Assembly (NCBI GenBank): GCA_021432655.1 | Contig: MU271260.1 | Span: forward strand, 1 to 64,000 | DNA: 64,000 nucleotides | DNA from: Atractiella rhizophila | Lineage: Eukaryota | Direction of reading: 5' to 3' | Shown here: positions 3,950-58,117 of the stretch, piece by piece | How positions within the stretch are numbered: the first letter of the stretch is position 1 | Layout of the letters: every line of letters starts with the position of its first letter | The notes under the pieces: model-generated | What the model saw: the letters and a program-made list of their open reading frames with translations, nothing else | What the model was told of the DNA's origin: nothing | Databases searched by the model: none | Program-made: the position numbers and the translations under genes

Positions 3950-4303
3950 CATACCCTTTCGTACGAGGGGCCATAACATTTCGTACAACATGAATAACCT
4001 TTCACATGAGGGAAATAATCTTTCGTACGAGACAGGATAACCTTCGGCACGAGCCTTTCGTACGAGAGTGCTTTCGTATGAGAGAAATAACCTTTCGTAC
4101 GATAGAAATAACCTTTCGTACGAGAGAAATAACCTTTCGTACGAGAAAATAACCTTTCGTACGAGAGAAATAACCTTTCGTACGAGAGAAATAACCTTTC
4201 GTACGAGAGAAATAACCTTACGTTCAACTTACGTTCAATGAACACATTGTATGAGAAGACATAACCTTTCGTACGAGAAACATAACCTTTCGTACGAAAG
4301 ACA
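3950..4303. repeat. Tandem array of about 15 copies of a ~21-bp unit (TAACCTTTCGTACGAGAGAAA)
   Basis: Near-perfect units at ~4088-4215, degenerate units on both sides; palindromic core TCGTACGA. Confidence 0.95.
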
Positions 4304-5394
4304 TTATACTATAGACAAGTATTATGGACTGACTTCACAATTTGGAACACGTGGGCTTGCACAATTGTATATGTCGTCACAACATACCCTGAGCATAAAA
4401 GGGAGATGCTTCCTACTCAAACAACAATCGGTTGTGAGATCGAGATGGCACCATCATCATATGGCGAAGTTGTCCGTCCCGTCCTCATCTCTGTCGTCCT
4501 CTCCTTCTGTCTCTGGGGGATCGGACTCTCTCAGGTCCGTCCCCTTCAATGGAACCGCACAGCTTTCTTACGAGCACGTCAGTTTCATCACTGTTTTGGT
4601 ATGCTCCAGTCGGTATGCTAGACCATCCTACCCTGTTTTGTACCGGAGAATCAAATTGTACCAAAATGTTTCGGAACAGTCAAGAAAGATACTTGCTCTT
4701 GAGCTCTCAGCTCTCCTCGTTGTCGACGTGGTTGACTCGTGAGTCACTCGAGAGATGAACCTCACATATTGACTGTGGCTGATTAAGTGCCACAAAGCTT
4801 ATATGGTCCAAAGCGTTTATTCGCGGCGCTGCCTTGCACACGCTGTCGGATTTCATAGCGTATCTTCCCTTCTATCTCCTGCCCTGAGAATGACTGATCT
4901 TAATATTATAGCCTGCCGGATCATGGCATAGCCGTTTTGTCCATCAGCACTTTCCTGGGCAACGTCTATGGTGCTATAAGCCCTATCATAGCTCATAGGC
5001 ATTTTGTCACCTAGGCTCTATGGTAGACCCTCTATAGTGCCATAGGAAGGGCGCCCTATGGGCCATATTGCACAATGGCCATGCTTCTTGTCCCAATGCA
5101 ATACACACCTAGGTAAACCGCAGTGACTGTTTGAAGAGTGGACTTGATGTGACAAACATCATCGAAAGGATGAATGTTCGACGTCGACAAGGGGTAAAGA
5201 CTTCAGCCGAGGGTGGTTCAAGAGTTGTGCGCATCGCTCAATGATCACAGTTTCCGCTCTGGTAGACCTTCCGGGGGCCGTAAACACGTAGGTGTTCGAA
5301 AATTAGTGAAGCATGATGATAGAATCGGATCGAAATGTATTCAAAGTCTTCTCCTTCATCATTAAAAAGCTATCCTGATAAGTATATGTTGCCT

Positions 5395-7380
5395 TCAGTA
5401 TGTAAAGAAGTTCTGCATGCAGGCGAAAGCAGGAGAGAATTCACGACTGTGAAAGATGGAAAGGAAGAAGACTTTCGTTTTTGGGTCCGATGTGACGCTT
5501 TCTCCAACTTCTCCTCGCTCTCCGCCTACCTCTGCAAGGAAGTTTTTGGGTTAGCTCCCCAACCTGGAGAAAATGACCTTGCCACCGTAGCGAGATATTT
5601 CCAAGCACACAAGTGCATCCTCTTCTTGGATAATTTCGAGACGCGCCCACACGGTCGGACCCGAATAAGCTGCAACCATTCTTCCAATCCCTTCTTCCAG
5701 AAAATGCTCCTCTGGTTCCATTCTCGTCGCAGTACACCGCGGCTATCAGGTCGAATGTGGGAATTTTGAGTGAGGCAAGATTTCAAAAGCTGGTGGTTGG
5801 GTGCCTCAGCGACACCGCTGGAAAAAACATTGTTCAAGTACACGTAGTGCAAGGGAGATGAAGGTTGTGCACAACAACTACTGGAGTCCACTTTCGCTAA
5901 GCTGGACCATCATGCCTTGGCCATCAAGCTCTTCTGTTGGATTTTGCAGTGTAGTTGTGTGCCACTCAGTGGCAAAGTCCTTTAGTTTTCTGGAATGTTC
6001 TACTACTTTCTAGTTGCCACTGCTGTAAGCTATATAAACACATAGAATTCCATTTCCTGGTGCTCATGCGTTTGCAAGAGCTCAGCCAAACGTAACCAAG
6101 TCGTACTTAGCTCCGCTCCTCAGCCCGTCGATTTCCAACATCTTCATTCTTCACACTAATGCGGAATCAACTAAGCAGCTTGCAGTTTTGTTCGAGGAGT
6201 GGGCGGCAAAGAAGACCACGCACTTATGGAACGAAGATAGCGAAGAGATACACTCTCTCGCCTCTTCTATCTTTTTCGCTCGATTCACCTCTTCTCAGAA
6301 AACATGAAGACCTCAGCGCTTTTATACTTGTCCTATTTTCATGGACTCCTGATGGTCTCCTGGCAGACGACATTATCGCCATGGTGGATAACAACTTGTC
6401 TTCCGAGCTCCTCACTTCAATCTTAGCCGTCGGACTTGCTGAAGATACCATGGATACCCTTACAAACCGGAAACGGTTGCACATGCTTGCGCCAATTCGC
6501 GACACATCAACCGTATGGTCTTGGGTCCGGTTCCACCGTTTAAAATCACTGCTTTATCGCTTCAGCCGTTGACAATAGGTCTCATTGATAAGGCTCGTAG
6601 AAATGTTCGACGATTCAAAGATGGAGTTGAGCGGATCGGATTACTCTCTTTTCGCAACAATCCGAACCTGGAACAAGTCCTTCTGACCGCCTTTCAACAC
6701 CTGGAAGATGTGACAACAGTATTGATTTTCCTGATAGAAATTTGGAATTTCCTCTATCTTCCAAGGCTTCTCTCCACAGCATTGTTCCACTCCGCTTTAT
6801 CATCCAAAAGATTAATTACACTACACAAAGCTGAATTGATGCAGGCTCTTGCATCAGCATTTCGACAGAAGGGGAACCTACAACAGGCGTTGAAACGGTT
6901 CGAGGAGGCGAAGGGGCTGTATGTGGTCGCGGCAGATCAGCAAGGCCTTGCCCACTGCATTCGCGGCATGGGGGGCATCGAGAGGGGTCGCGGGCGGAAC
7001 GAGGAAGCGTTGAAACGATTTGAGGAGGCGAAAGAGCTATATGTGATTGTAGATGATGTAGGAGGTCAACTTAACTGCCTTTCAAACCTGGCTTCTGTTT
7101 ATGCTCAACATCGCCAGCTTGCTAAGGTGTTTGAACTTTGTGGGGAAGTGGTCAATTTGAGTCCAACAGGTACTACGAAGGTGTTAGCAGAGAGAAGATG
7201 GCCAAATTCCACTTCGTTCTGTCAAAGTATGCAGAGGCCAGGGAAGAAATCATCCATGCCCGTCACCTTTACATGGAATGCAGTGCAGAGTCAGACATTG
7301 CCAATTGTGACCATTTGCTGCAGGCAATGGCACAGGCAGAAAAGGCGGTCACATGGTGGTGAGCCATGGCTGCTTAAGTC
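5395..7380 (+). pseudogene. NLR-like STAND NTPase + TPR gene, copy 1 (no P-loop, frameshifted, LTR-interrupted)
   Basis: FWVRCD, Walker B-like ILFLDNFET, LDHHALAIKLF, SLDSPLL, MLAPIR, then 40-aa TPR-like repeats (ALKRFEEAK.LY twice, 120 nt apart). Collinear with copy 2. Confidence 0.82.
5935..6140 (+). mobile_element. Solo LTR (206 bp), copia-like, 5-bp TSD TCTTC
   Basis: TGTTGG...CCAACA termini; TCTTC at 5930-5934 and 6141-6145; TATATAAA at ~6031. The paralog at ~12990 reads through the empty site. Confidence 0.95.
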
Positions 7381-8980
7381 AGATATTCAAGTGCTCCCTT
7401 CTGACGGGAGACTGGGAGATGAGAAGGATGGAGCCTGCCATCACGAGGTTAGGCGTACCAGCCAGAGACTGAGAAAGAGGATGGGAAACGAGTTGACATC
7501 CAGTCAAGATAAAAAATTGAAAGTGCCTGGCTAATGCTAACATGCTCACAGGTGTATACAATTCCTAAAGACATTACCGTCAAAAGATCATCACCCTAAG
7601 CTAACATGGCTTGCTAAAATTGTGATGCGTAAAGGGCCTATCGCCTTCGTAGCCATATTTCAGTCCTCACTTCCTCCACCCACATTTTCTTTTCGGCCCA
7701 CCGCATAGCCTCACATTCATGCGCACGGATCTGTTCTCTTCCTAGCACCGATTTTAAACGCAAAATCCACAATCTTCACACCCTCCATTGCCTCTCGCGC
7801 ATACACTGTCTTCACATTTTCGACGTTCGCCGAATTCAGCTTGATGGCTTCACGCTTTACCTCCTTCCTTGATTGGACTGATGTACTTGTCATTCCTTGA
7901 ACAGGCAGAGCACGATTAGGAGAACGGGAGCGATCCACGACAACGGTCTCCGAGGGGATTTTGTGGTGGCTTGCGCCATAGGGGAGCCGGGGAATGTATG
8001 GAATTCTTTTCTTGTGTTGGATGTCTCGGGCATACGTGGTAGGTTCTGGGATCTCGTTTGAGGTTGTCTGACCTTGGTTCGGGTTGGAGTTCAACTCTTG
8101 CGAGGGAGGAATCGGGGGGGGGGGATCGTTGCTTGCTCTACGCTGCTTGTGACAACCCTCCTACAAGCTAACTCAGCATATGGAGAGTTCAGGAAGGATC
8201 GCTCACTTTGCACTGCAGTGTCTGCAAGGTATCGTCTGTGAAAGCAGATCAGTTCGCTACCACTGCATACAAAACCAGATACATTATCACGTGCAAGTTT
8301 TCCCCCTATACACTCCTAGGTCCATCAATCAGCAGTCGCTACCCAGGCACGTCAATCGCATACCATGCAGACAACACTGCACAACCACTAATCATGGAAA
8401 ATCGCAATTGGATGATGACAGACACACCTCCAATTAGCCTTCCGTTTTCTAGGGTTTCGTTCGCTTGTGTCATCTGTTGCTTGCATGATGACAGAAGCGA
8501 CAGGGAGGGTGGAGCAAGGGCAAGAGGGTTGGAATTCGCTGCTGGGATGATGAGCCCGGATCCGCGTTACGAATCAGGTCAAGACCGCCTTCCAATTCAG
8601 GACCAAATAGCTTTGTTTTGATGGTCGACCAGTTTTTAACTCGACGATTCCGTTTCTCAAACAAAGTTTGATCCTCAAGGTTGGAGAATGGCCAAGCTCA
8701 TTCATGAGAATGTCCGTTTGAATTCGAGGCACTTTTGATGCATCGCACCCAAAATGACCGCGGAACGCGGAATGACTCATAGCCATCATCGGCTGGACAA
8801 GGGTTTCGAGAATCGAGCCTTGTCTACATCAACCGACGAACCCTCTCTGCATCTCTCTCATGCTGTCAGGGAGAGCAAATTGTTCCTGGATTTTGCTTGT
8901 TGAGTGTCAAGTGCCAGCAGTTGGTTGTTACTACGCTATCGGTCGAAGAAAGTCGCGCATGTGAGTCTTTATTGACTCTC

Positions 8981-9173
8981 TGTTGTTTTTCTCTGCTGCT
9001 TTGTTAACCTCAAACAAATGTATTACTGTATTACGTTTGGCTGAGCTCTTGCAAACGCATGAGCAGCAGAAACACAAGAACAGGTGTTTATATACATGTG
9101 AGCTTTGTGGCAAATAGAAACTTCCAGAATGATCATGAAGAAAGTATTACTAACATTTTACACATCTCCAACA
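8981..9173 (-). mobile_element. Solo LTR (193 bp) related to 5935-6140
   Basis: Minus strand TGTTGG...CAACA; flanks CTCTC/CTCTT (1 mismatch); shares TATATAAACAC and an exact 35-nt block with the first solo LTR. Confidence 0.78.
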
Positions 9174-9949
9174 CTCTTGCCCTGTTGATGATGAGATGAG
9201 AGATGTGTCCTCTCTTGTCAATTCGATATTCAAGTTGTGCAGCCTTCATATCTCCACTGACCCAAACTCAAACACATATCCACAACTTCAATTCTTCGGC
9301 AGTTGGTTCATCGCGACATCTTTCTTCTTCCTAGCGTTCGGTTCACCGTCTTGCAAGTTGACAAATGGTTCCATGTGTCCTAAGTTGACCTCCCCTTCTT
9401 ATCCTTACGTCCTCACATTCGTAAGGAATGTTCTTCCATGGGTGTGGATCTTTGAATCGGAATGCGGCTCTACTGCCTTGTTTCTTCTTCCGGTTCTTCA
9501 GAGTCAGTTTCACGTATCCTTTCGCTGCTCTCCCTCCTCGCAGCTCTAGTCCAGATCTGACCTATTCCGCAGTTTCGTATCTCACGTTCAACAAGGAGTT
9601 CTCGGTCAATTGTCATCGATGTCATCTCGTGTTCTAGGCGATGTACGCCTCAGCCTTCAGAAAGACGCCTAAATCTTCTTCATTAAATCCCAGCGACAAT
9701 GAAGACCCTGGGAATTTATCTGATGACGACAACGCATTCACCGCCGGTTCGCGACATGTTCCACAGTCTAATGAAGGCATCGGAGTGTCACAATCTTTCA
9801 GTATTGCAGCTGTACTCTCAACCCAGCCGTTTCCTGACTGCCAAACCGACCGATTTTTGGCCGACAATTTGGCTTCCTATCGCGTACCGCGTCGCCCATT
9901 GCCTCCAGAGCTGCTACTCCAACACTTTTCTCATCCCCCAGCCGCTCCC

Positions 9950-12700
9950 AAGTTGAAGCCGTCAAGATTTTCCAAGTCTCCAAGAATGTCAAGAAGACGA
10001 ACGACCAAGGCGTCCGAATCCTCGTTATTGACAACGGCAGCATCTGTACCTTTCCCACACTTTACATGCTCCAAGTCATCATGCTCCAAATTGGAGATCT
10101 CCTCGGTGTTCCCGAGGTAGAAGAGGTTCGACCCTGCGATGTTTTCGATCTCATTTATGGTACTTCTACAGGAGGATGGATTGCCCTCATGCTTGGACGA
10201 TTGGGAATGACCGTTCAAGAATGCATCCGTGCGTGGGAACAGATCGTGCAGCAAGTCTTTTCCGAAGAACTCCAACCACGAAAGGAGGCTGCGTGTACTC
10301 TGCGGAGAGGCTCGAAGCCGTCTTCCACGGCATCATTGCTCGACATGCTTCATCATCTGTGCCGTCGTCCTGTCTTCCTATGAAGGATGACCAGATTGCA
10401 GATCGATGCAGAACATTCATCGTCTCAAGATACGAATCAGATGCCGTCGTTTCGACAGAGATGCGCACGCACGACGTCCCCCATGCAGCTCGCTTTGCTG
10501 CTCAATGTGCTGTGTGGAAGGCAGCAAGAGCAACCTCCTCTGATCCTGACTTCTTCCCTCCTATCGTCATCGACAACACTAACTGTCGCCATGGGAAACA
10601 ATAACCCAGCAGCATTAGCGATTGACGAGTCAAAGAGGATTTGGGGAAAAAGAAGTCAAGCTGCCTGTCTCGTATCTTTGGGGTCAGGCCTTGCTCAGGC
10701 TGTCTCATTGGGTCATAAGATGGCTCAGATTGAGCAGGCTGTGAAGGCCATCGTCGAGGATTGCTCCCGCGTGGCGAAAATGATGATGCAAGAACAACGT
10801 CTGGGTCATCGCTACCATCACTTTTCCGACCATATGGTGGGAAGCATCAAGAGGGAGGAGTGGGAGCGAACTCAGGTCGTGGAAGGCCGTACGAAAGGCG
10901 TATATGGACGCCATGGATCATGAAGCTCGTCCTGCTGCTGACCATCTCGTACAAGGTATGATCCCTCACCTCCCGTTTCGTTACTATGTTGATGTTCTGA
11001 TAGTGTGCAGTGAACGGATTGCAGTTCGTCGAAGGTTTCCGTTACCGCCTCCAGGGTCTTGCTTTGGGCAAGAGGCTGAGATCCAACTTGCGAGAGAAGC
11101 TATCCTTAGTGGCCGTGACGTCGGGATCGTTGGTGGAGCTGGAAATGGAAAATCCACCGTTGGACTCGACACGCTGCACGCAGAGGAGATCAAGCGGGCC
11201 TTCGCAGCGGAAACTCGAGAAGATCTCCGCTTTTGGGTTCGCTGCGACAACTTTGACAACTTTGCCAGGCTTTCAGATCACATTTGCAATTATATCTTTG
11301 CGCTGTCTTAGTCTAGCAAGACCCACTGGAGAATGTGGCCACCTACTTCGGAAGTCGAAAATGTCTTCTTGGTTTGGATAATTTTGAAACTCCTCTACGT
11401 CCTGACAACGACGACAAAGGAGACATCCTTTCGAACCCTTCTTTCAAACAGCTCAGGCGGGTCAGTGCTCGTCGTGGCCCATCGGGGAAATCAAGCAGAA
11501 TCTTTAGGCGTGAAGAAGCTGGCGCCTATGAAGGAGCAGGCGTGAGTGAAGTTTGTCAAGGTCTCAGTTGGACGTTTGCCGAAAGACGGTGCGCTGGAAC
11601 TCTTTGCAGATTCATATCGGCGAGAAGATGCGTTCTCACATCTGCTGGTCAGAAACCTAATTCAATAGCTGGACCTCCATGCTTTGTCCATCAAGCTATT
11701 TGCTCTACGGGCCAATGAGGATCCGAACCATGACACTCGAGGAATTAGTAGGCGAGCGGCAAGAGAAAAAGACTAGCATTTTATGGGATGAGGACAGCAA
11801 AGACGCTATCACCCTCAAAACCTCTATATTGTTCTCCCTCGATTCTCCGGTTCTGTGCAAGGAGGGGGAGGGCGGTTTTTTTTGTGCTTGCCCTCCTGTC
11901 GTGTGTGCCTGGCGGTTTATCCTACCACGATTTGTCAGCACTCCTATCCAGTTCTTATGAGCATAAGGGTATCTTCAAGGTTGTCGGTGTAATTTCGAAA
12001 ATTGGGCTTGCCAATGGCCTCAAAGGCACTCTCCGTATGCTAGCTCCTTTCGTGAATACCTCAACGACCGTGTCTCTCGTTCCAAATCACCATTTTCGAT
12101 GGCTCTTGCTTAATCGTTGCTTCCTCTTTCATATCATCTCATGCAGAAAGCTGAAACAAATATTCAACAGTTTGACGCCCACGAGGATCAGCACGCACTG
12201 TTTCAATCCGATGAACAATACCCAAACCTTGAACATGTCCTGCTAAGGAGCATGTTATGCCTGTCAAACCCTTTACCAATCCTGCGGCATTTGGAAAAGA
12301 CATCAGAGTTTCTACGTCTGAAGCATACGCTCTCAACTTCATTTTTCAACTGGCGACACGTGTAGTGAACACGGCGCTGGGAATGACCCTGTCTCCGCAC
12401 ATCGAGTCTGAACGGTTAAGACTGAGGCGTTTGCTGACAATGTCCCTTGGCAATTGTTTTTATGCCCATGGCGAGAATGAGGATGCTCTGAAGGCATTTG
12501 AAGAGGCAAAGGTGCTCCATATGGAAGTGGAGATCAACAGGGTCAAGCCAACTGCATCTGCAACATTGGGGAGATCAATATTCAATGTGGGTGGAATGAG
12601 GATGCTGTGAAGGTGTTTGAAGAGGCAAAGGTACTTTACACAGAAGTAGGCGATGTATATGGCGAGTATATGGTGAACACATTGCTGCCGTTCAATAGCT
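9950..12700 (+). pseudogene. Patatin + STAND NTPase + TPR NLR-like gene, copy 2 (several frameshifts)
   Basis: GVRILVIDNGS, RPCDVFDLIYGTSTGG, AARATS, GNNNP, LVSLGSG (patatin); P-loop GGAGNGKST; LLGLDNFETP; TPR-like DALKAFEEAK repeats at 12475 and 12594. Probable intron 10956-11003. Confidence 0.88.
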
Positions 12701-12779
12701 GGTGTTCTGCAACATACAATTCATAGAAGGTCACCACCGGCAAGTGGTGCTGCAGGTGTGTAGCGCAGAGATCATTCGA

Positions 12780-13395
12780 AATAAGTATTGTTTACGTGAG
12801 AGATAATAAGGCAAGGATAAAAGCGCTGAGGTCTTCATTTTTTCTGAGAAGAGGTGAATCGAGCGAAAAGATATCGAAGTGGTGAGAGTGAGTGTCTCTT
12901 CGCTATCTTCGTTCCATAAGAGGGTGGTCTTCTTTGCCGCCCGCTCCTCGACCAAAACAGCAAGCGGCTTAGTTGATTCAGCGTTGGCGCGAAGAATGAA
13001 GAGCTTGATGGACAACGCATGATTGTCCAGATTATTGACGATGGTTTTCACTACCTGCTCCCGACCCGATAAATCTCTTCTCCCAGCAGTGTACATATCG
13101 TTGAATATGTCCAGTACGGCAATATCGCTCAAGCCGCCAATTACTAAGACTTGAAATTTTCTCCTGCCAAGTTCACACGTTCCACCTGATAGCCACGTTG
13201 TACTACGACGAGAATGGAACCAGAGGAGCAGTTTCTGGAAGAAGGGATTGCAAGAATGGTTGCAACTTCTTCATGTCCGACCGTGCAGGGGTCTCGAAAT
13301 TACCAAGATGAGGAAGCACTTGTGAGTTCTGAAATATCTCGCTACGGCCGCAAGCTCATCTTCTTCAGGTCGGGGAGCCAATCCAAAAACAAGTA
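12780..13395 (-). pseudogene. NLR-like NTPase-domain fragment, copy 3, inverted
   Basis: Reverse complement aligns at DNA level with ~5540-6340 of copy 1 (LDNHALSIKLFIL...LLWNEDSEETL). Confidence 0.85.
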
Positions 13396-13414: not shown

Positions 13415-14015
13415 AAGTAGAACGAGTTATTTGCTATATATTCGTCAACTGAAAGACTCCGAAACTAGATATGCAGCTACACAATTAGAATGCCTAGCTG
13501 TAGTTTGGGCTCTGGAGAAGCTGCATCAATATTTGGACGGTGCGGAGTTCGAAGTCATCACGGATTGCATCGCACTCAAAAGCCTTTTAGGCCTAAAGAC
13601 TCCGACGAGACAGATGTTTCGCTGGCACCTGGCAATTCAAGAGTTTCAAGGAAGGATGACAATTGTTCATCGAGAAGGCAAGAAACACTCAAACGTAGAT
13701 AGCCTGTCCCGAAATCCTCTGCCTAATAATGCATCCAACCCAGCTGCTGACTTAGATGACGAGGCAATTCCCCAAATTGCTGCTATATCTGTGTTAGAAC
13801 TGAAAGATGAAGTCTTCGAAGCAATTCATGAAGGATATGCTCAAGATAAACAGCTATATGCATTGTATTCAGCATTGAAAGACGGTATGCACACTTCTAA
13901 AGCAGCTTTACTGTCTACTCTGTCTCCAACTCTATGAAGAGATGCAGAAGACGGGCAGTTCTTTCTCATGGATAATCTGCTTTATAGACAAGACAGCCTA
14001 GACTCCGTTGTGGTA
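13415..14015 (+). mobile_element. Ty3/gypsy pol fragment (RNase H)
   Basis: RQLKDSETRYAATQLECLAVVWALEKLHQYLDGAEFEVITDC, QMFRW...IQEF, HREGKKHSNVDSLSR. Confidence 0.9.
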
Positions 14016-50023: not shown

Positions 50024-51844
50024 ATGTCGCAGCCACCTCCTGTGGATCCGTTTTCTCGTGCCTCTGCTCTCCAGATGATCGATCATCCGTGGCTTCAAAA
50101 CAGGGCTTCTTTGAATGTTCTACTAGCCCATGGTCACGAGGAACTTCCCCTTGAAAGGCGACCCTCACCGCCAATCAAAATCCCGTTGTCGCGGACGGCA
50201 GCTGCAACCCCCGACGACGGTTGCGAAGTGGGGAGCCCTACATTGTCTCGGCGCAGCAGCAGAAGCTCCGGAACTGGTAAGACTTTGGTGATTACCTGCA
50301 GAACGTCATGACCTGAAGACACCACCGCAGCCTTATCTGATGATAGTTTATTCAGTTTGAACCATTACGTGACTCTTGCCATGCGTTCTTACCGTTGGCA
50401 TTCGACCCGACCCTCTCAAACTTCTTCAATTACCCGATTACCAAACGAACTGTTATTCCAGATATTTTACTTTTTCTCACCCTGGGTCTCTCACGTCGAG
50501 GATCTGAACCAAGAGTTTATCACACATTTTTGTATCTTCCGACAGGTTTGCTCCTCGTTTGGAGAAGTCGGACTCGGTGCCCTCCGAGACTATAGTACTC
50601 GTTTTGCCAGTAGCTTTTCCGCCTACACTTTGAATATCAGTTACCTCAGGAACATGGCGATGGAACATAACTTTATGTCTTGGGAATGGGACGCAACGTC
50701 GAAGTTAGGTCAGCCCGTTCCGCCGTCCAGCAGGTCTTGGCCATATTTGTTGCGGGCTGTTGCAGCACATCCAGGTCGTACCAAGGTGCAGATCCATAAT
50801 CTCCCATGGGATGGTTATGATCTAAAGGATATGTTGAGGTCTATTTCTTCTGCATCAGAAGCATCTTGGATACTTCTCTTTAGAAAACAGCAAGTTCAAA
50901 TATCTCTGCAGCAAATACTTATTGTCCTCTCACAAAAAGTTCGATCTAGCACTTTATGTGGACTGATTCCTTCGCCGGACGAGCGTTTCACTTGGAGGTG
51001 GCGTCCCTTGACTAGCAACTGTCTTTCCCTGCTTCGGTGTTGCTTTTGCGATGAAGACCTCTACGTGTTCGTCGGAGCACCAGAGTCACTCTTGAATGCA
51101 CACTTCATATCTACCAAAACGCTGAGGTTCAGCTCATTTCATCAACAGCTTACCGCCGAGGGCTTCTGTCACTTTTTGAGAAAAATCAAGACTGCTCATC
51201 TTTGCTGTGCTTTTCAGCGGCTGTGTGAGATTGATCAGAAGATTGATCAGAACAATAACGTCTCTGACCTGACGAAATATCTTGACCATGAACTGCTTAA
51301 CCGGCTCCCCTTGAAAATTGGCTGTGCGCTTGGTGGCACACTTTACTTTGATGGAGGGGAGGAGGACTCTAACCTTATTTCTAATCAGTTTCTGGCATTT
51401 GATGCTGAATGGCAATACTTATCAGAGCTAGTTTTACTTTACTGTCATTTTCCATTCAGCGCAATCTGCACCTTCCTGTGGTCGGCCACTCAAAAAGAGC
51501 CTCGAGGTGTTGTTACACGCTTGGTTGTCCAGTTAAAGCCATTCTTCGGAGACTGTGACTTTTCTGCCACATGGTTCTCCAAAGCTCTTGGGTCATTTCG
51601 AAACTCGCTGGCCATGTCTTCCATCGAAACGTTCTACGAAAGGTGTGGGAAAGAACTTCAATATCAACTTCAGTATGATCCCTTAAGATCAGGAAGGTTG
51701 TTTAGGGTTTTCTGTGAGGGGATCTTCCCAGTTGACCTCTGGATCATTGATCAAGATGATGTGCCGGAATCTCTTTTCTTTTGGACAAATTTCGATGCAA
51801 ACAAGCAGGTTAGTGGTGAGCTTCACTTCCCTTTACTTGTGTAA
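50024..51844 (+). CDS. F-box-like protein, ~588 aa (exons 50024-50276, 50331-51844)
   Basis: ITRLPNELLFQIF...FRQVCSSF F-box pattern; 54-nt intron GTAAGA...CGCAG joins the upstream ORF in frame; 1.5-kb open exon. Confidence 0.72.
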
Positions 51845-56275: not shown

Positions 56276-58117
56276 ATGTTCTCGAAGGCTCTTCCAGGAA
56301 TTAAAAGGGGTCGACGATTCGAGAACTCGCTGTGACGTCTGTGGTATGAAGAAATGTCCCCATACGGCACTCCATCGATGCGCGCGAAGGAGCCAAAGAC
56401 CGTCAAGGCACTCTTCGAGACCTTGAAAGGCCTCTTCCAAGATGATTTTGTTGAAGACAACGTCAAAGCGGTGTTGTTTAAGGCGTCTCCAGATTTGGTC
56501 TCGGTTTTGGAGGGCATGAGACTGGATTTAGGGAGGGAAAGGGATGGAGGTACCCGGAGCCCAGCGTGCAAACCGTCAGCACCTGTTTCATCTTCACTGG
56601 CTAAACGCCAAGCTCCTCTCACAAGCACAAGTTCCATTGCCATTTCCAACTCGAAACCGCTGACTCCAAGAGGAACATCAGAGGAAGCCGTTGTTGAGCG
56701 GCATGGAATTGTTCCGTTGGATGGATTGGGATGGATGAACCGGCGCGTCACTTTTCCTCTTAGTGCAAGCCTCAAAGTCTCGAGCTCAGCAGAGTTGAAG
56801 AGAACAATCGCACCCAGCTTGACATTTCCGCAACTTGCACAGCAAGTGAAGGTGCCGTGTCACCAGTATCCAGGAAAGAAGAAACCGTCTCTCATGACTC
56901 CCAGTCGAGCCAAAAGGGTCATTAGTGCATTACCTCGTTTTTCCTCAAATCATGTTGGTCGAATGTCTAGCAATCATGTCCGCACCGGTGCCACCAAATC
57001 TTTGCTCCTGCGTCGCCCCAAAGCCCCACCACGCGTAGTTGAGCTTCCTTACCCTGGCTACACCAATCCGCTAAGACCTCTCCCCCCGCTTAACCCTCCA
57101 CCGCCGGAACCCGAACGAAGGAGCCAGCGGATATGGGGAGAGACCATGAGGAGGAAGATCCTCGATATCCCTCCGCCAATCAAAGGCGATCCTTTGAAGG
57201 TGATAACGGGCTTCGAAATTGTGGCTAGCGAGGATGAGGATGAGGCTTCATCGACTAGTTTCACCCTTCTCCAACCTTTGAAGACCGAATGTAACGTGAA
57301 GGAAAAGGAGAAGCAGATCCTGCGACAGAGGGGGGAAGCAAGCTTGGCCCCATCGGGACTCAAATCGTTGGAGCCTATGGACCCACTGCAACCTACTCAT
57401 GATCAACCGTCTGCCACTGTGGATTCTTCCCCAGTTGCTGCTATGTCTACGCAGGCAAAGGAGAGAGAATCGCAGCCCCTTCTTCCATCTACCAAATTCG
57501 CTCCGATGCTGGCTTCCTCTATGTCTGATGAACTGGATGCGGAGGGGGTGAAGAAGGATGATTTGGATTTGATACTATGGTGCTCGGAAGGAGAGGATGA
57601 TGATGATGATGAACAGCATGCCGTGTTGAAAAAAGAATGGGACGAGCATAACAAGGATAAGGAGACTTGGTTCGTCAAGCGTCTGGTATCTTTAGCCAAT
57701 GCCACTCGTCCTTCTGCTCTCACCGCCATCTTTGATCCCTCCAAAGTTAATCGAGATTTACGCATCAAAGCGATCTCCTATCGGAATAAGGTGCGCATAC
57801 TCGCCAAAGCTTCTCTTCCCGTTATTGAGTTGGAGAGTGACCCCGAGGACGAAGTGGGGGTGGAAGCCCAGGTGAAGGAGGAGAATCAGGAGCGAGAGCG
57901 TCATGAGGTCCTAATGGCTCCACCTCTGTCACCACGGACGACTAAACGCAATATGCTGACAGGCGAATTTAGCGAAGTTCTGTGGCAGATTCTCATCAGG
58001 GAGAGGCAGGCGAGGAGAAGGAGTGGATGCTATAACCCTGGGGATTGGGCAGAGGCCATCAAGGATTCAATCCGCGTAAGCCCGAACAATGCCTTGGAAG
58101 CAACGGCAATAAACTGA
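56276..58117 (+). CDS. DUF1752 + DUF3295 family protein, with an in-frame TGA in the N-terminal motif
   Basis: 587-codon ORF from 56354 ending in PLSPRTTKRNMLTGEFSEVL..IL..ERQ (DUF3295-like); in-frame upstream MFSK..GRRFENSL*RLW (DUF1752-like), TGA at 56333-56335. Confidence 0.75.

Follow-up and report, generated by a model that had tools for sequence, protein, structure and literature searches.

Pseudogene debris of a patatin-like/STAND/TPR gene family in Atractiella rhizophila, a family whose patatin head lacks the catalytic aspartate

Patatin NLRs in fungi and the locus in the window

The closest described counterparts of the genes analysed here are PLP-1 of Neurospora crassa, HET-Z1/PaPLP1 of Podospora anserina and VIC2 of Cryphonectria parasitica, which, in the accessible parts of the reports, have the same order of patatin, NB-ARC and TPR, with an NB-ARC-like STAND NTPase and a TPR sensor. 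A trait of the PLP-1 type is cell death once a SNARE partner is recognised. According to the same parts, PLP-1 oligomerises and needs both its P-loop and its patatin activity (PMC12881547; 10.1101/2022.04.03.486892). The available text on patatins ascribes their catalysis to a Ser-Asp dyad (PMC12480259), and patatin heads are put at 2-3% of fungal NLR N-termini in the available portion of a second source (10.1101/2022.03.16.484565). The accessible sections of a survey from 2014 class fungal patatin NLRs as direct enzymatic effectors, give usually one or two of them per species (index 1.7) and name no NLRs in Pucciniomycotina (PMC4986451). HIC NLRs of Podospora and Laccaria, as far as their available descriptions go, share with the present family near-identical repeats, a varying repeat number and an association with transposons and pseudogenes; the family differs from them in that its TPR units have 40 residues and sit on a pseudo-patatin scaffold. 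Outside the NLRs, the CBASS effectors CapV and CapE and potato patatin have the same fold as the head of the family, with an alignable dyad site. In the accessible accounts these are active, ligand-gated, polymerising enzymes, whereas the head described below is part of an NLR and is without the Asp.

Atractiella rhizophila is a member of the Pucciniomycotina. In the window, a stretch of 64,000 nucleotides from its genome, a first-pass annotation had described a decaying cluster of three NLR-like receptors in a transposon nest, as a candidate for an uncharacterised system. Six-frame motif scans and self-alignment bore out that three paralogous segments of STAND type lie within 8 kb, two on the forward and one on the reverse strand. 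All three are indeed disrupted (frameshifts and stops in copy 2, an LTR in copy 1, deletions in copy 3), Pfam confirmed TPRs after the NTPase segments of copies 1 and 2, and the surroundings are rich in transposons, with copia-type gag/integrase, RT RNase H, Helitron N and PIF1 domains in the window. The motifs said to be common to the three copies held in part: LDxHxLxIKL and SLDSP occur in all three, FWVRCD and the exact LDNFET in two. This sharing is far above chance (copies 1 and 3, blastn E 1e-67). The architecture is not an uncharacterised one, being patatin-NOD-TPR, like that of Neurospora PLP-1; the patatin-like N-terminal domain of copy 2 and its 48-nt intron had both been overlooked. 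Nor do three receptors lie side by side. The locus consists of one full-length pseudogene and two fragments from two subfamilies (Table 1).

Table 1. Features of the cluster and its surroundings in the window.
Feature	Position	Strand	Remarks
Copy 1, 5'-truncated STAND-TPR remnant	5406..7345	+	patatin and Walker A absent; numerous frameshifts
Solo LTR, 206 bp	5935..6140		TGTTGG...CCAACA; inside copy 1; 5-bp target duplication TCTTC
Block with copy 2 and upstream spacer	7345..12797	+	also on contigs C25 and C3 (93-94%)
Second LTR-like insertion	8980..9172	-	upstream of copy 2; missing at paralogous loci; 79% like first LTR over 91 bp
Copy 2, full-length patatin-like/STAND/TPR pseudogene	9641..12763	+	10 frameshifts and 4 stops, from patatin start onward
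Copy 2, patatin-like domain	10006..10930	+	IDNGS loop; GTSTG at 10159; two-residue deletion at catalytic Asp motif (~10585-10610)
Copy 2, intron between patatin and NTPase exons	10956..11003	+	48 nt, GT..AG
Copy 2, STAND NTPase	11030..12065	+	Walker A GGAGNGKST 11132-11158; Walker B LDNFET 11374
Copy 2, residual TPRs and C-terminal cap	12460..12763	+	2 TPR motifs left
Copy 3, internal NTPase fragment, 589 bp	12802..13390	-	no Walker A, no TPR
RT RNase H fragment of retrotransposon	13416..13937	+	adjoins copy 3; Helitron remains then to ~18000

Copy 2 is the only one of the three to retain a Walker A motif. Its patatin domain is matched by Pfam Patatin at 9838-10380 with 28.7 bits (cut-off 27.7), and it is 91% identical over 3.3 kb to a gene on contig C334 with an open frame of 1315 codons. 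The C-terminal cap is kept, while the TPR array is reduced to 2 motifs, compared to 10 in the C334 gene. Relative to an open paralog on contig C317, copy 1 begins at residue 518, just beyond the P-loop (507-514), and it has two TPR motifs, at 6899 and 7019. Copy 3 corresponds to residues 564-761 only of the same paralog and carries four single-base deletions. It is 89% identical to a gene on contig C139 and 84-88% identical to copy 1, and we rejected the idea of a recent inverted duplicate of copy 1 on the basis of this identity and the nearer relative.

Copies 1 and 3 form one subfamily and copy 2 belongs to another. A local tandem array was likewise rejected, since copy 2 is ~91% identical to the C334 and C159 genes as opposed to 68% to copy 3. 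The block with copy 2 is bounded by two junctions, at 7345 and ~12797, that occur in this window only. The cluster is, as read from these relationships, a patchwork produced by rearrangement. No mobile element with defined ends was found to carry copy 2; in the other copies, the homology runs beyond both junctions. A suspected fourth NTPase fragment near 9000-9300 proved to be the LTR-like insert together with the upstream flank of copy 2.

The gene family across the genome

Searches of the genome assembly returned at least 106 matches to the P-loop segment and at least 133 to the patatin domain; these are match counts, not copy numbers. We fetched 80 loci, picked from the best hits rather than at random. 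The patatin and NTPase domains are both open, 111-144 bp apart, at 41 of them, three being near-identical copies, so that the intact paralogs predicted for elsewhere in the genome do exist. At the remaining 39, at least one domain is broken or partial, or one domain is absent. Compared to the one or two patatin NLRs usual per species in the accessible survey text, about 40 are thus open here and more are broken. The suggested birth-and-death turnover is supported, and the family, proposed to be lineage-specific, is lineage-restricted among the hits seen; the nearest named proteins are labelled Atractiella rhizophila.

Open members carry the tripartite order of effector, NOD and repeats in one gene, and single open frames with Patatin, STAND and TPR_12 matches span 1315-1649 codons. 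An in-frame intron of 46-49 nt lies between the exons at 15 of the 17 loci parsed by script, and the intron length restores the frame at six of the seven loci whose exons lie in different frames. At least three TPR motifs follow in the same frame at 27 of the 41 open loci (range in open frames, 0-18 motif hits). The TPR unit is 40 residues long. Within single genes, its copies have mean DNA identities of 0.92, 0.93 and 0.90 in three of four genes and of 0.76 in the fourth. Repeats that are 80-100% identical within a gene, as in HIC NLRs, were therefore found in three of the four, and copies 1 and 2 of the window retain only two motifs each. The TPRs hold most of the variability in the family. 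By its architecture alone, the family would have a putative immune role.

The proposed assignment of the NTPase to the STAND class was confirmed by profile searches (E<=0.01), which matched nSTAND1 in 35 of 37 members, NACHT in 31 and NB-ARC in 21, the NB-ARC match lying under the cut-off wherever scores were given. An open member scored 34.1 with nSTAND1 (cut-off 27.1) and 28 with NACHT (cut-off 26.7). The nearest Atlas clusters to the NTPase are NB-ARC (0.98), and what we take to be the position of the NB-ARC GxP motif reads LDxHAL. When the PDB was searched by sequence with the NTPase profile, most matches were ABC ones confined to the P-loop, and a single weak one was to a plant NLR, ADR2 (E 0.002). 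Judged by these matches, the NTPase is of STAND class and NB-ARC-like, with no clean subclass assignment.

Several contigs from sequencing runs align on the C334 paralog. One contig of run X4 shows a 48-nt GT..AG joint, a contig of run X1 a 55-nt joint with an out-of-frame acceptor, and the root metatranscriptome runs X5 and X6 contain short matching contigs. With contigs at 88% identity and a best run that has no recorded library type, these data weakly suggest that the family is expressed.

The patatin head and its possible role

The patatin motifs concerned are named DGG and DGGG. Among 66 near-complete patatin domains, 59 share a common two-residue gap at the Asp motif, three lack the Asp in other ways and four bear it. 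Whereas PLP-1 needs its patatin activity according to the accessible reports, the catalytic Asp is absent from all 41 open NLR loci. This unusual trait of the family had escaped the first-pass annotation. By its domain order, the family has a PLP-1-type layout, but the dyad of such NLRs is not intact in it (Asp 0/41, Ser 37/38). The former Asp position is occupied by seven different residues, and the glycine-rich loop is altered as well (DGGG to DNGG or DSGD). The set of 38 loci is what remains of the 41 open loci once two duplicates and the divergent C209 gene are set aside. That the Ser is kept in 37 of the 38 counts against a non-catalytic head, as it would be needless in a fully dead enzyme.

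The N-terminal patatin fold is supported by the Pfam Patatin match, a structure model and a fold search. The alignment-based model reached a pLDDT of 90, compared to 36 from a single sequence, and its top fold matches are CapV and patatin (Foldseek E 1e-14, TM ~0.75), with whose Ser-Asp site, as with that of CapE, the heads can be aligned. In the 38 loci, pairwise dN/dS has a median of 0.19 in the head (506 usable pairs) and of 0.23 in the NTPase (337 pairs), the pairs not being independent; for close pairs (dS 0.05-0.2) it is 0.23, with 5 pairs only. Since dN/dS is about 0.2, the head is under purifying selection. We are very confident that in the open members the Asp is gone while the Ser and the fold are kept and the domain is conserved.

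Each of the four Asp-bearing domains stands alone as a protein of ~395 residues. A profile search found no NTPase in the DNA fetched around these four stand-alone patatins and around eight further, mostly Asp-bearing, patatin-like loci. A FastTree phylogeny of 100 domains, built after masking the motif columns, places the Asp-less heads and the stand-alone patatins together in a single clade (support 1.0), within which they are sister groups (0.96, 0.91; NLR clade 0.91 and 0.84). A divergent NLR on contig C376 is an exception in retaining the Asp motif, although telomere repeat, at the end of the contig, stands in place of its front half. Its Asp motif suggests that the ancestor of the family was catalytic.

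Outside the family, we compared 131 of 150 representatives, the other 19 being same-family members or fragments. The Asp is missing in 11 of them, 7/35 with a P-loop and 4/96 without (Fisher p 0.008, uncorrected for kinship). Five of the seven Asp-less proteins with a P-loop are patatin-TPR proteins, from records labelled Rhizoctonia, Ceratobasidium, Hypsizygus and Serendipita. The patatin-NB-ARC-TPR proteins under these names resemble the Atractiella family in combining patatin, P-loop and TPR without the Asp; however, their Asp is replaced by Gly and not deleted, most lack the Ser, as do several of the outside Asp-less homologs in general, and they fall outside the family clade where placed (P0011). 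From this comparison, the Asp was probably lost in these basidiomycetes independently of the Atractiella family. Hypsizygus has an Asp-less NLR and an intact stand-alone patatin 50% identical to it, with near-consecutive accessions.

Taken together, the best overall explanation is that the window genes are relics of PLP-1-like receptors with a non-catalytic head, to which we assign a probability of about 0.6. By analogy, the intact members are probably NLR switches of the PLP-1 kind, in which the TPRs, as near-identical 40-residue units, would recognise a ligand that is non-self or modified self, the STAND domain would exchange nucleotide and oligomerise, and oligomerisation would cluster the patatin heads. 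Because the Asp is lost, we somewhat favour the view that the heads, once clustered, serve as a platform for binding proteins or membranes and do not act by lipase chemistry. The leading specific form, which we put forward tentatively, is that they recruit the catalytically intact stand-alone sister patatins; recruiting free active sister enzymes would be the most economical way of reaching the same output, damage to lipids. More speculatively still, dozens of NLRs with diverse TPRs could converge on a few free active patatins, the dead head being a homotypic adaptor that recruits and activates the enzyme once the NLR ring clusters it, like animal CARD and death domains. Such an adaptor split may have evolved repeatedly in basidiomycetes, the Hypsizygus pair being an example. 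The flanks fetched contained no stand-alone active patatin adjoining an NLR, an observation that counts against recruitment. A complex prediction for an Asp-less head with a stand-alone patatin, run without alignments, scored 0.01, a value that speaks neither for nor against recruitment.

That the head is still an enzyme, its Ser pairing with another acid (one supplied in trans once the protein oligomerises, or the conserved Asp that lies five residues upstream) or serving a different acyl chemistry, appears unlikely. The retained Ser, the equally conserved upstream Asp (37/38), the intact fold and the activity required in PLP-1 would all fit an enzyme. However, the modelled upstream Asp lies, from secondary structure, at a beta-hairpin turn one strand off the catalytic position, the active sister proteins have the same upstream Asp, and the change of the glycine-rich loop accompanies the loss of the Asp. 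The dependence of PLP-1 cell death on patatin activity, as given in the accessible reports, also counts against a non-catalytic head.

We consider it doubtful that the head serves as an integrated decoy, or as an autoinhibitory cap, mimicking active patatins targeted by microbial effectors, with the receptors as sensors that signal via a separate helper. The sister relation to active stand-alone patatins and the loss of catalysis in a kept fold are what one would expect of a decoy, and the Asp-bearing C376 NLR could be the helper type. Against this, about 40 heads are under uniform purifying selection with no diversification, most of the variability is held by the TPRs, the N-terminus is the effector position, and the C376 gene is without its Ser half in this assembly.

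The conserved and expanded Asp-less family, the active free sisters in the same genome and the parallel losses in other basidiomycetes make it testable whether an NLR effector of enzyme type can turn into an adaptor. The Asp-less family is of interest as the single tested case of a patatin NLR needs catalysis, according to the accessible text. Among the papers listed in searches of mainly openly accessible literature, none dealt with Asp-less patatin NLRs or with Atractiella rhizophila NLRs. This analysis adds the active stand-alone sister group, the Asp-bearing C376 gene, the parallel losses in basidiomycetes and the duplication of a dead copy.

Decay and duplication of the window copies

The locus in the window is a case of ordinary decay. 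NLR pseudogenes near transposons are already known in fungi from the available part of the literature (PMC13449251), and the window copies on their own are of no further import. Five of the ten frameshift positions and three of the four stop positions of copy 2 recur on contigs C3, C25, C1581 or C1938, and runs X1 and X6 yielded contigs that also have one of the shared insertions. The identity of copy 2 is 94-96% with three dead copies on other contigs, compared to 91% with open ones, and the dN/dS of copy 2 against the C334 gene is 0.38. Since its frameshifts and stops are common to copies on other contigs, an already dead gene was duplicated. We are very confident that the window contains pseudogene debris of a large lineage-restricted patatin-like/STAND/TPR family, that no copy in it encodes a full protein, and that copy 2 stems from a dead gene duplicated with its flank several times.

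The duplication of copy 2 with its flank after inactivation, together with the 39 of 80 loci that are broken, partial or without a domain, would also be expected if the expansion were mostly passive, repeats and segmental copying spreading live and dead genes alike, without any immune role. We regard this as very improbable in view of a dN/dS of ~0.2 even in close pairs (0.23, though from 5 pairs only) and open frames of 1400-1650 codons. That the window genes are intact and their breaks errors of assembly or sequencing, as the position of some indels in homopolymers and a private single-base deletion in the C334 gene itself (upstream of the patatin domain) might hint, is largely refuted and hardly credible given identical lesions on separately assembled contigs, four copy 2 stops that arose by substitution, the insertion shared with the X1 and X6 contigs, the raised dN/dS of copy 2 and the LTR with its target duplication in copy 1; from the contigs compared, the breaks are real.

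The element in copy 1 is a solo LTR, as follows from its TG..CA ends, the TCTTC duplication and its full-length matches. Among 40 candidates scored, 39 more full-length matches at 93-98% identity were found, some of them in direct pairs ~1.4 kb apart.

Open paralogs and the patatin-NTPase intron

We found that an out-of-frame intron of 54-56 nt is possible between the patatin and NTPase exons in 8 of the 17 loci parsed, via a second AG located 7 nt 3' of the in-frame acceptor. One contig of sequencing run X1 carries a 55-nt GT..AG joint. Out-of-frame splicing at the second AG could produce a head-only isoform.

In L042, the open paralog of copy 2 on contig C334, one C is missing at position 1431, upstream of the patatin domain. 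This base is present in C159, in the dead copies, and in most contigs aligned to the paralog. C334 may be mis-assembled or damaged at L042:1431.

Unusual family members and outside homologs

An open patatin of the NLR clade without the catalytic Asp (L107, G000:C34:40734-41675) has no NTPase behind it. Nested or head-to-tail copies of the family occur at L037 (G000:C627), L093 (C189), and L051 (C953); one of them fuses a TPR array with the C-terminal half of a second patatin domain plus an NTPase. Telomere-type hexamer repeats interrupt family genes mid-gene, directly at contig ends; such junctions result either from the healing of a broken chromosome or from an error of assembly.

Two Hypsizygus records share 50% identity: RDB16830.1 (P0088), an Asp-less patatin NLR, and RDB16828.1 (P0152), an intact patatin of 354 residues. 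A contig of the same size is given in both.

Other open frames and repeats

The start of the 510-codon frame is F-box-like by eye (LPNELLFQIF), and the frame had no Pfam match at E<=0.001. Copies (80-84%) of the 900-bp spacer repeat are found on contigs C3, C81, C94, and C270.

Coordinates of the features described
Feature	Position	Remark
Intron with second AG acceptor	L042:2463-2517 and paralogs; window 10956-11010	loci parsed, n=17
510-codon open frame	window 50312-51844	
593-codon low-complexity open frame	window 56336-58117	DUF3295 match
Short tandem array, ~20-21 bp units	window 3950-4305	
900-bp repeat in spacer	window 7637-8556	
Gene running into hexamer repeat	L149, G000:C376:1-700	
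Gene running into hexamer repeat	L075, C1372 end	
Gene running into hexamer repeat	L050, C627 end
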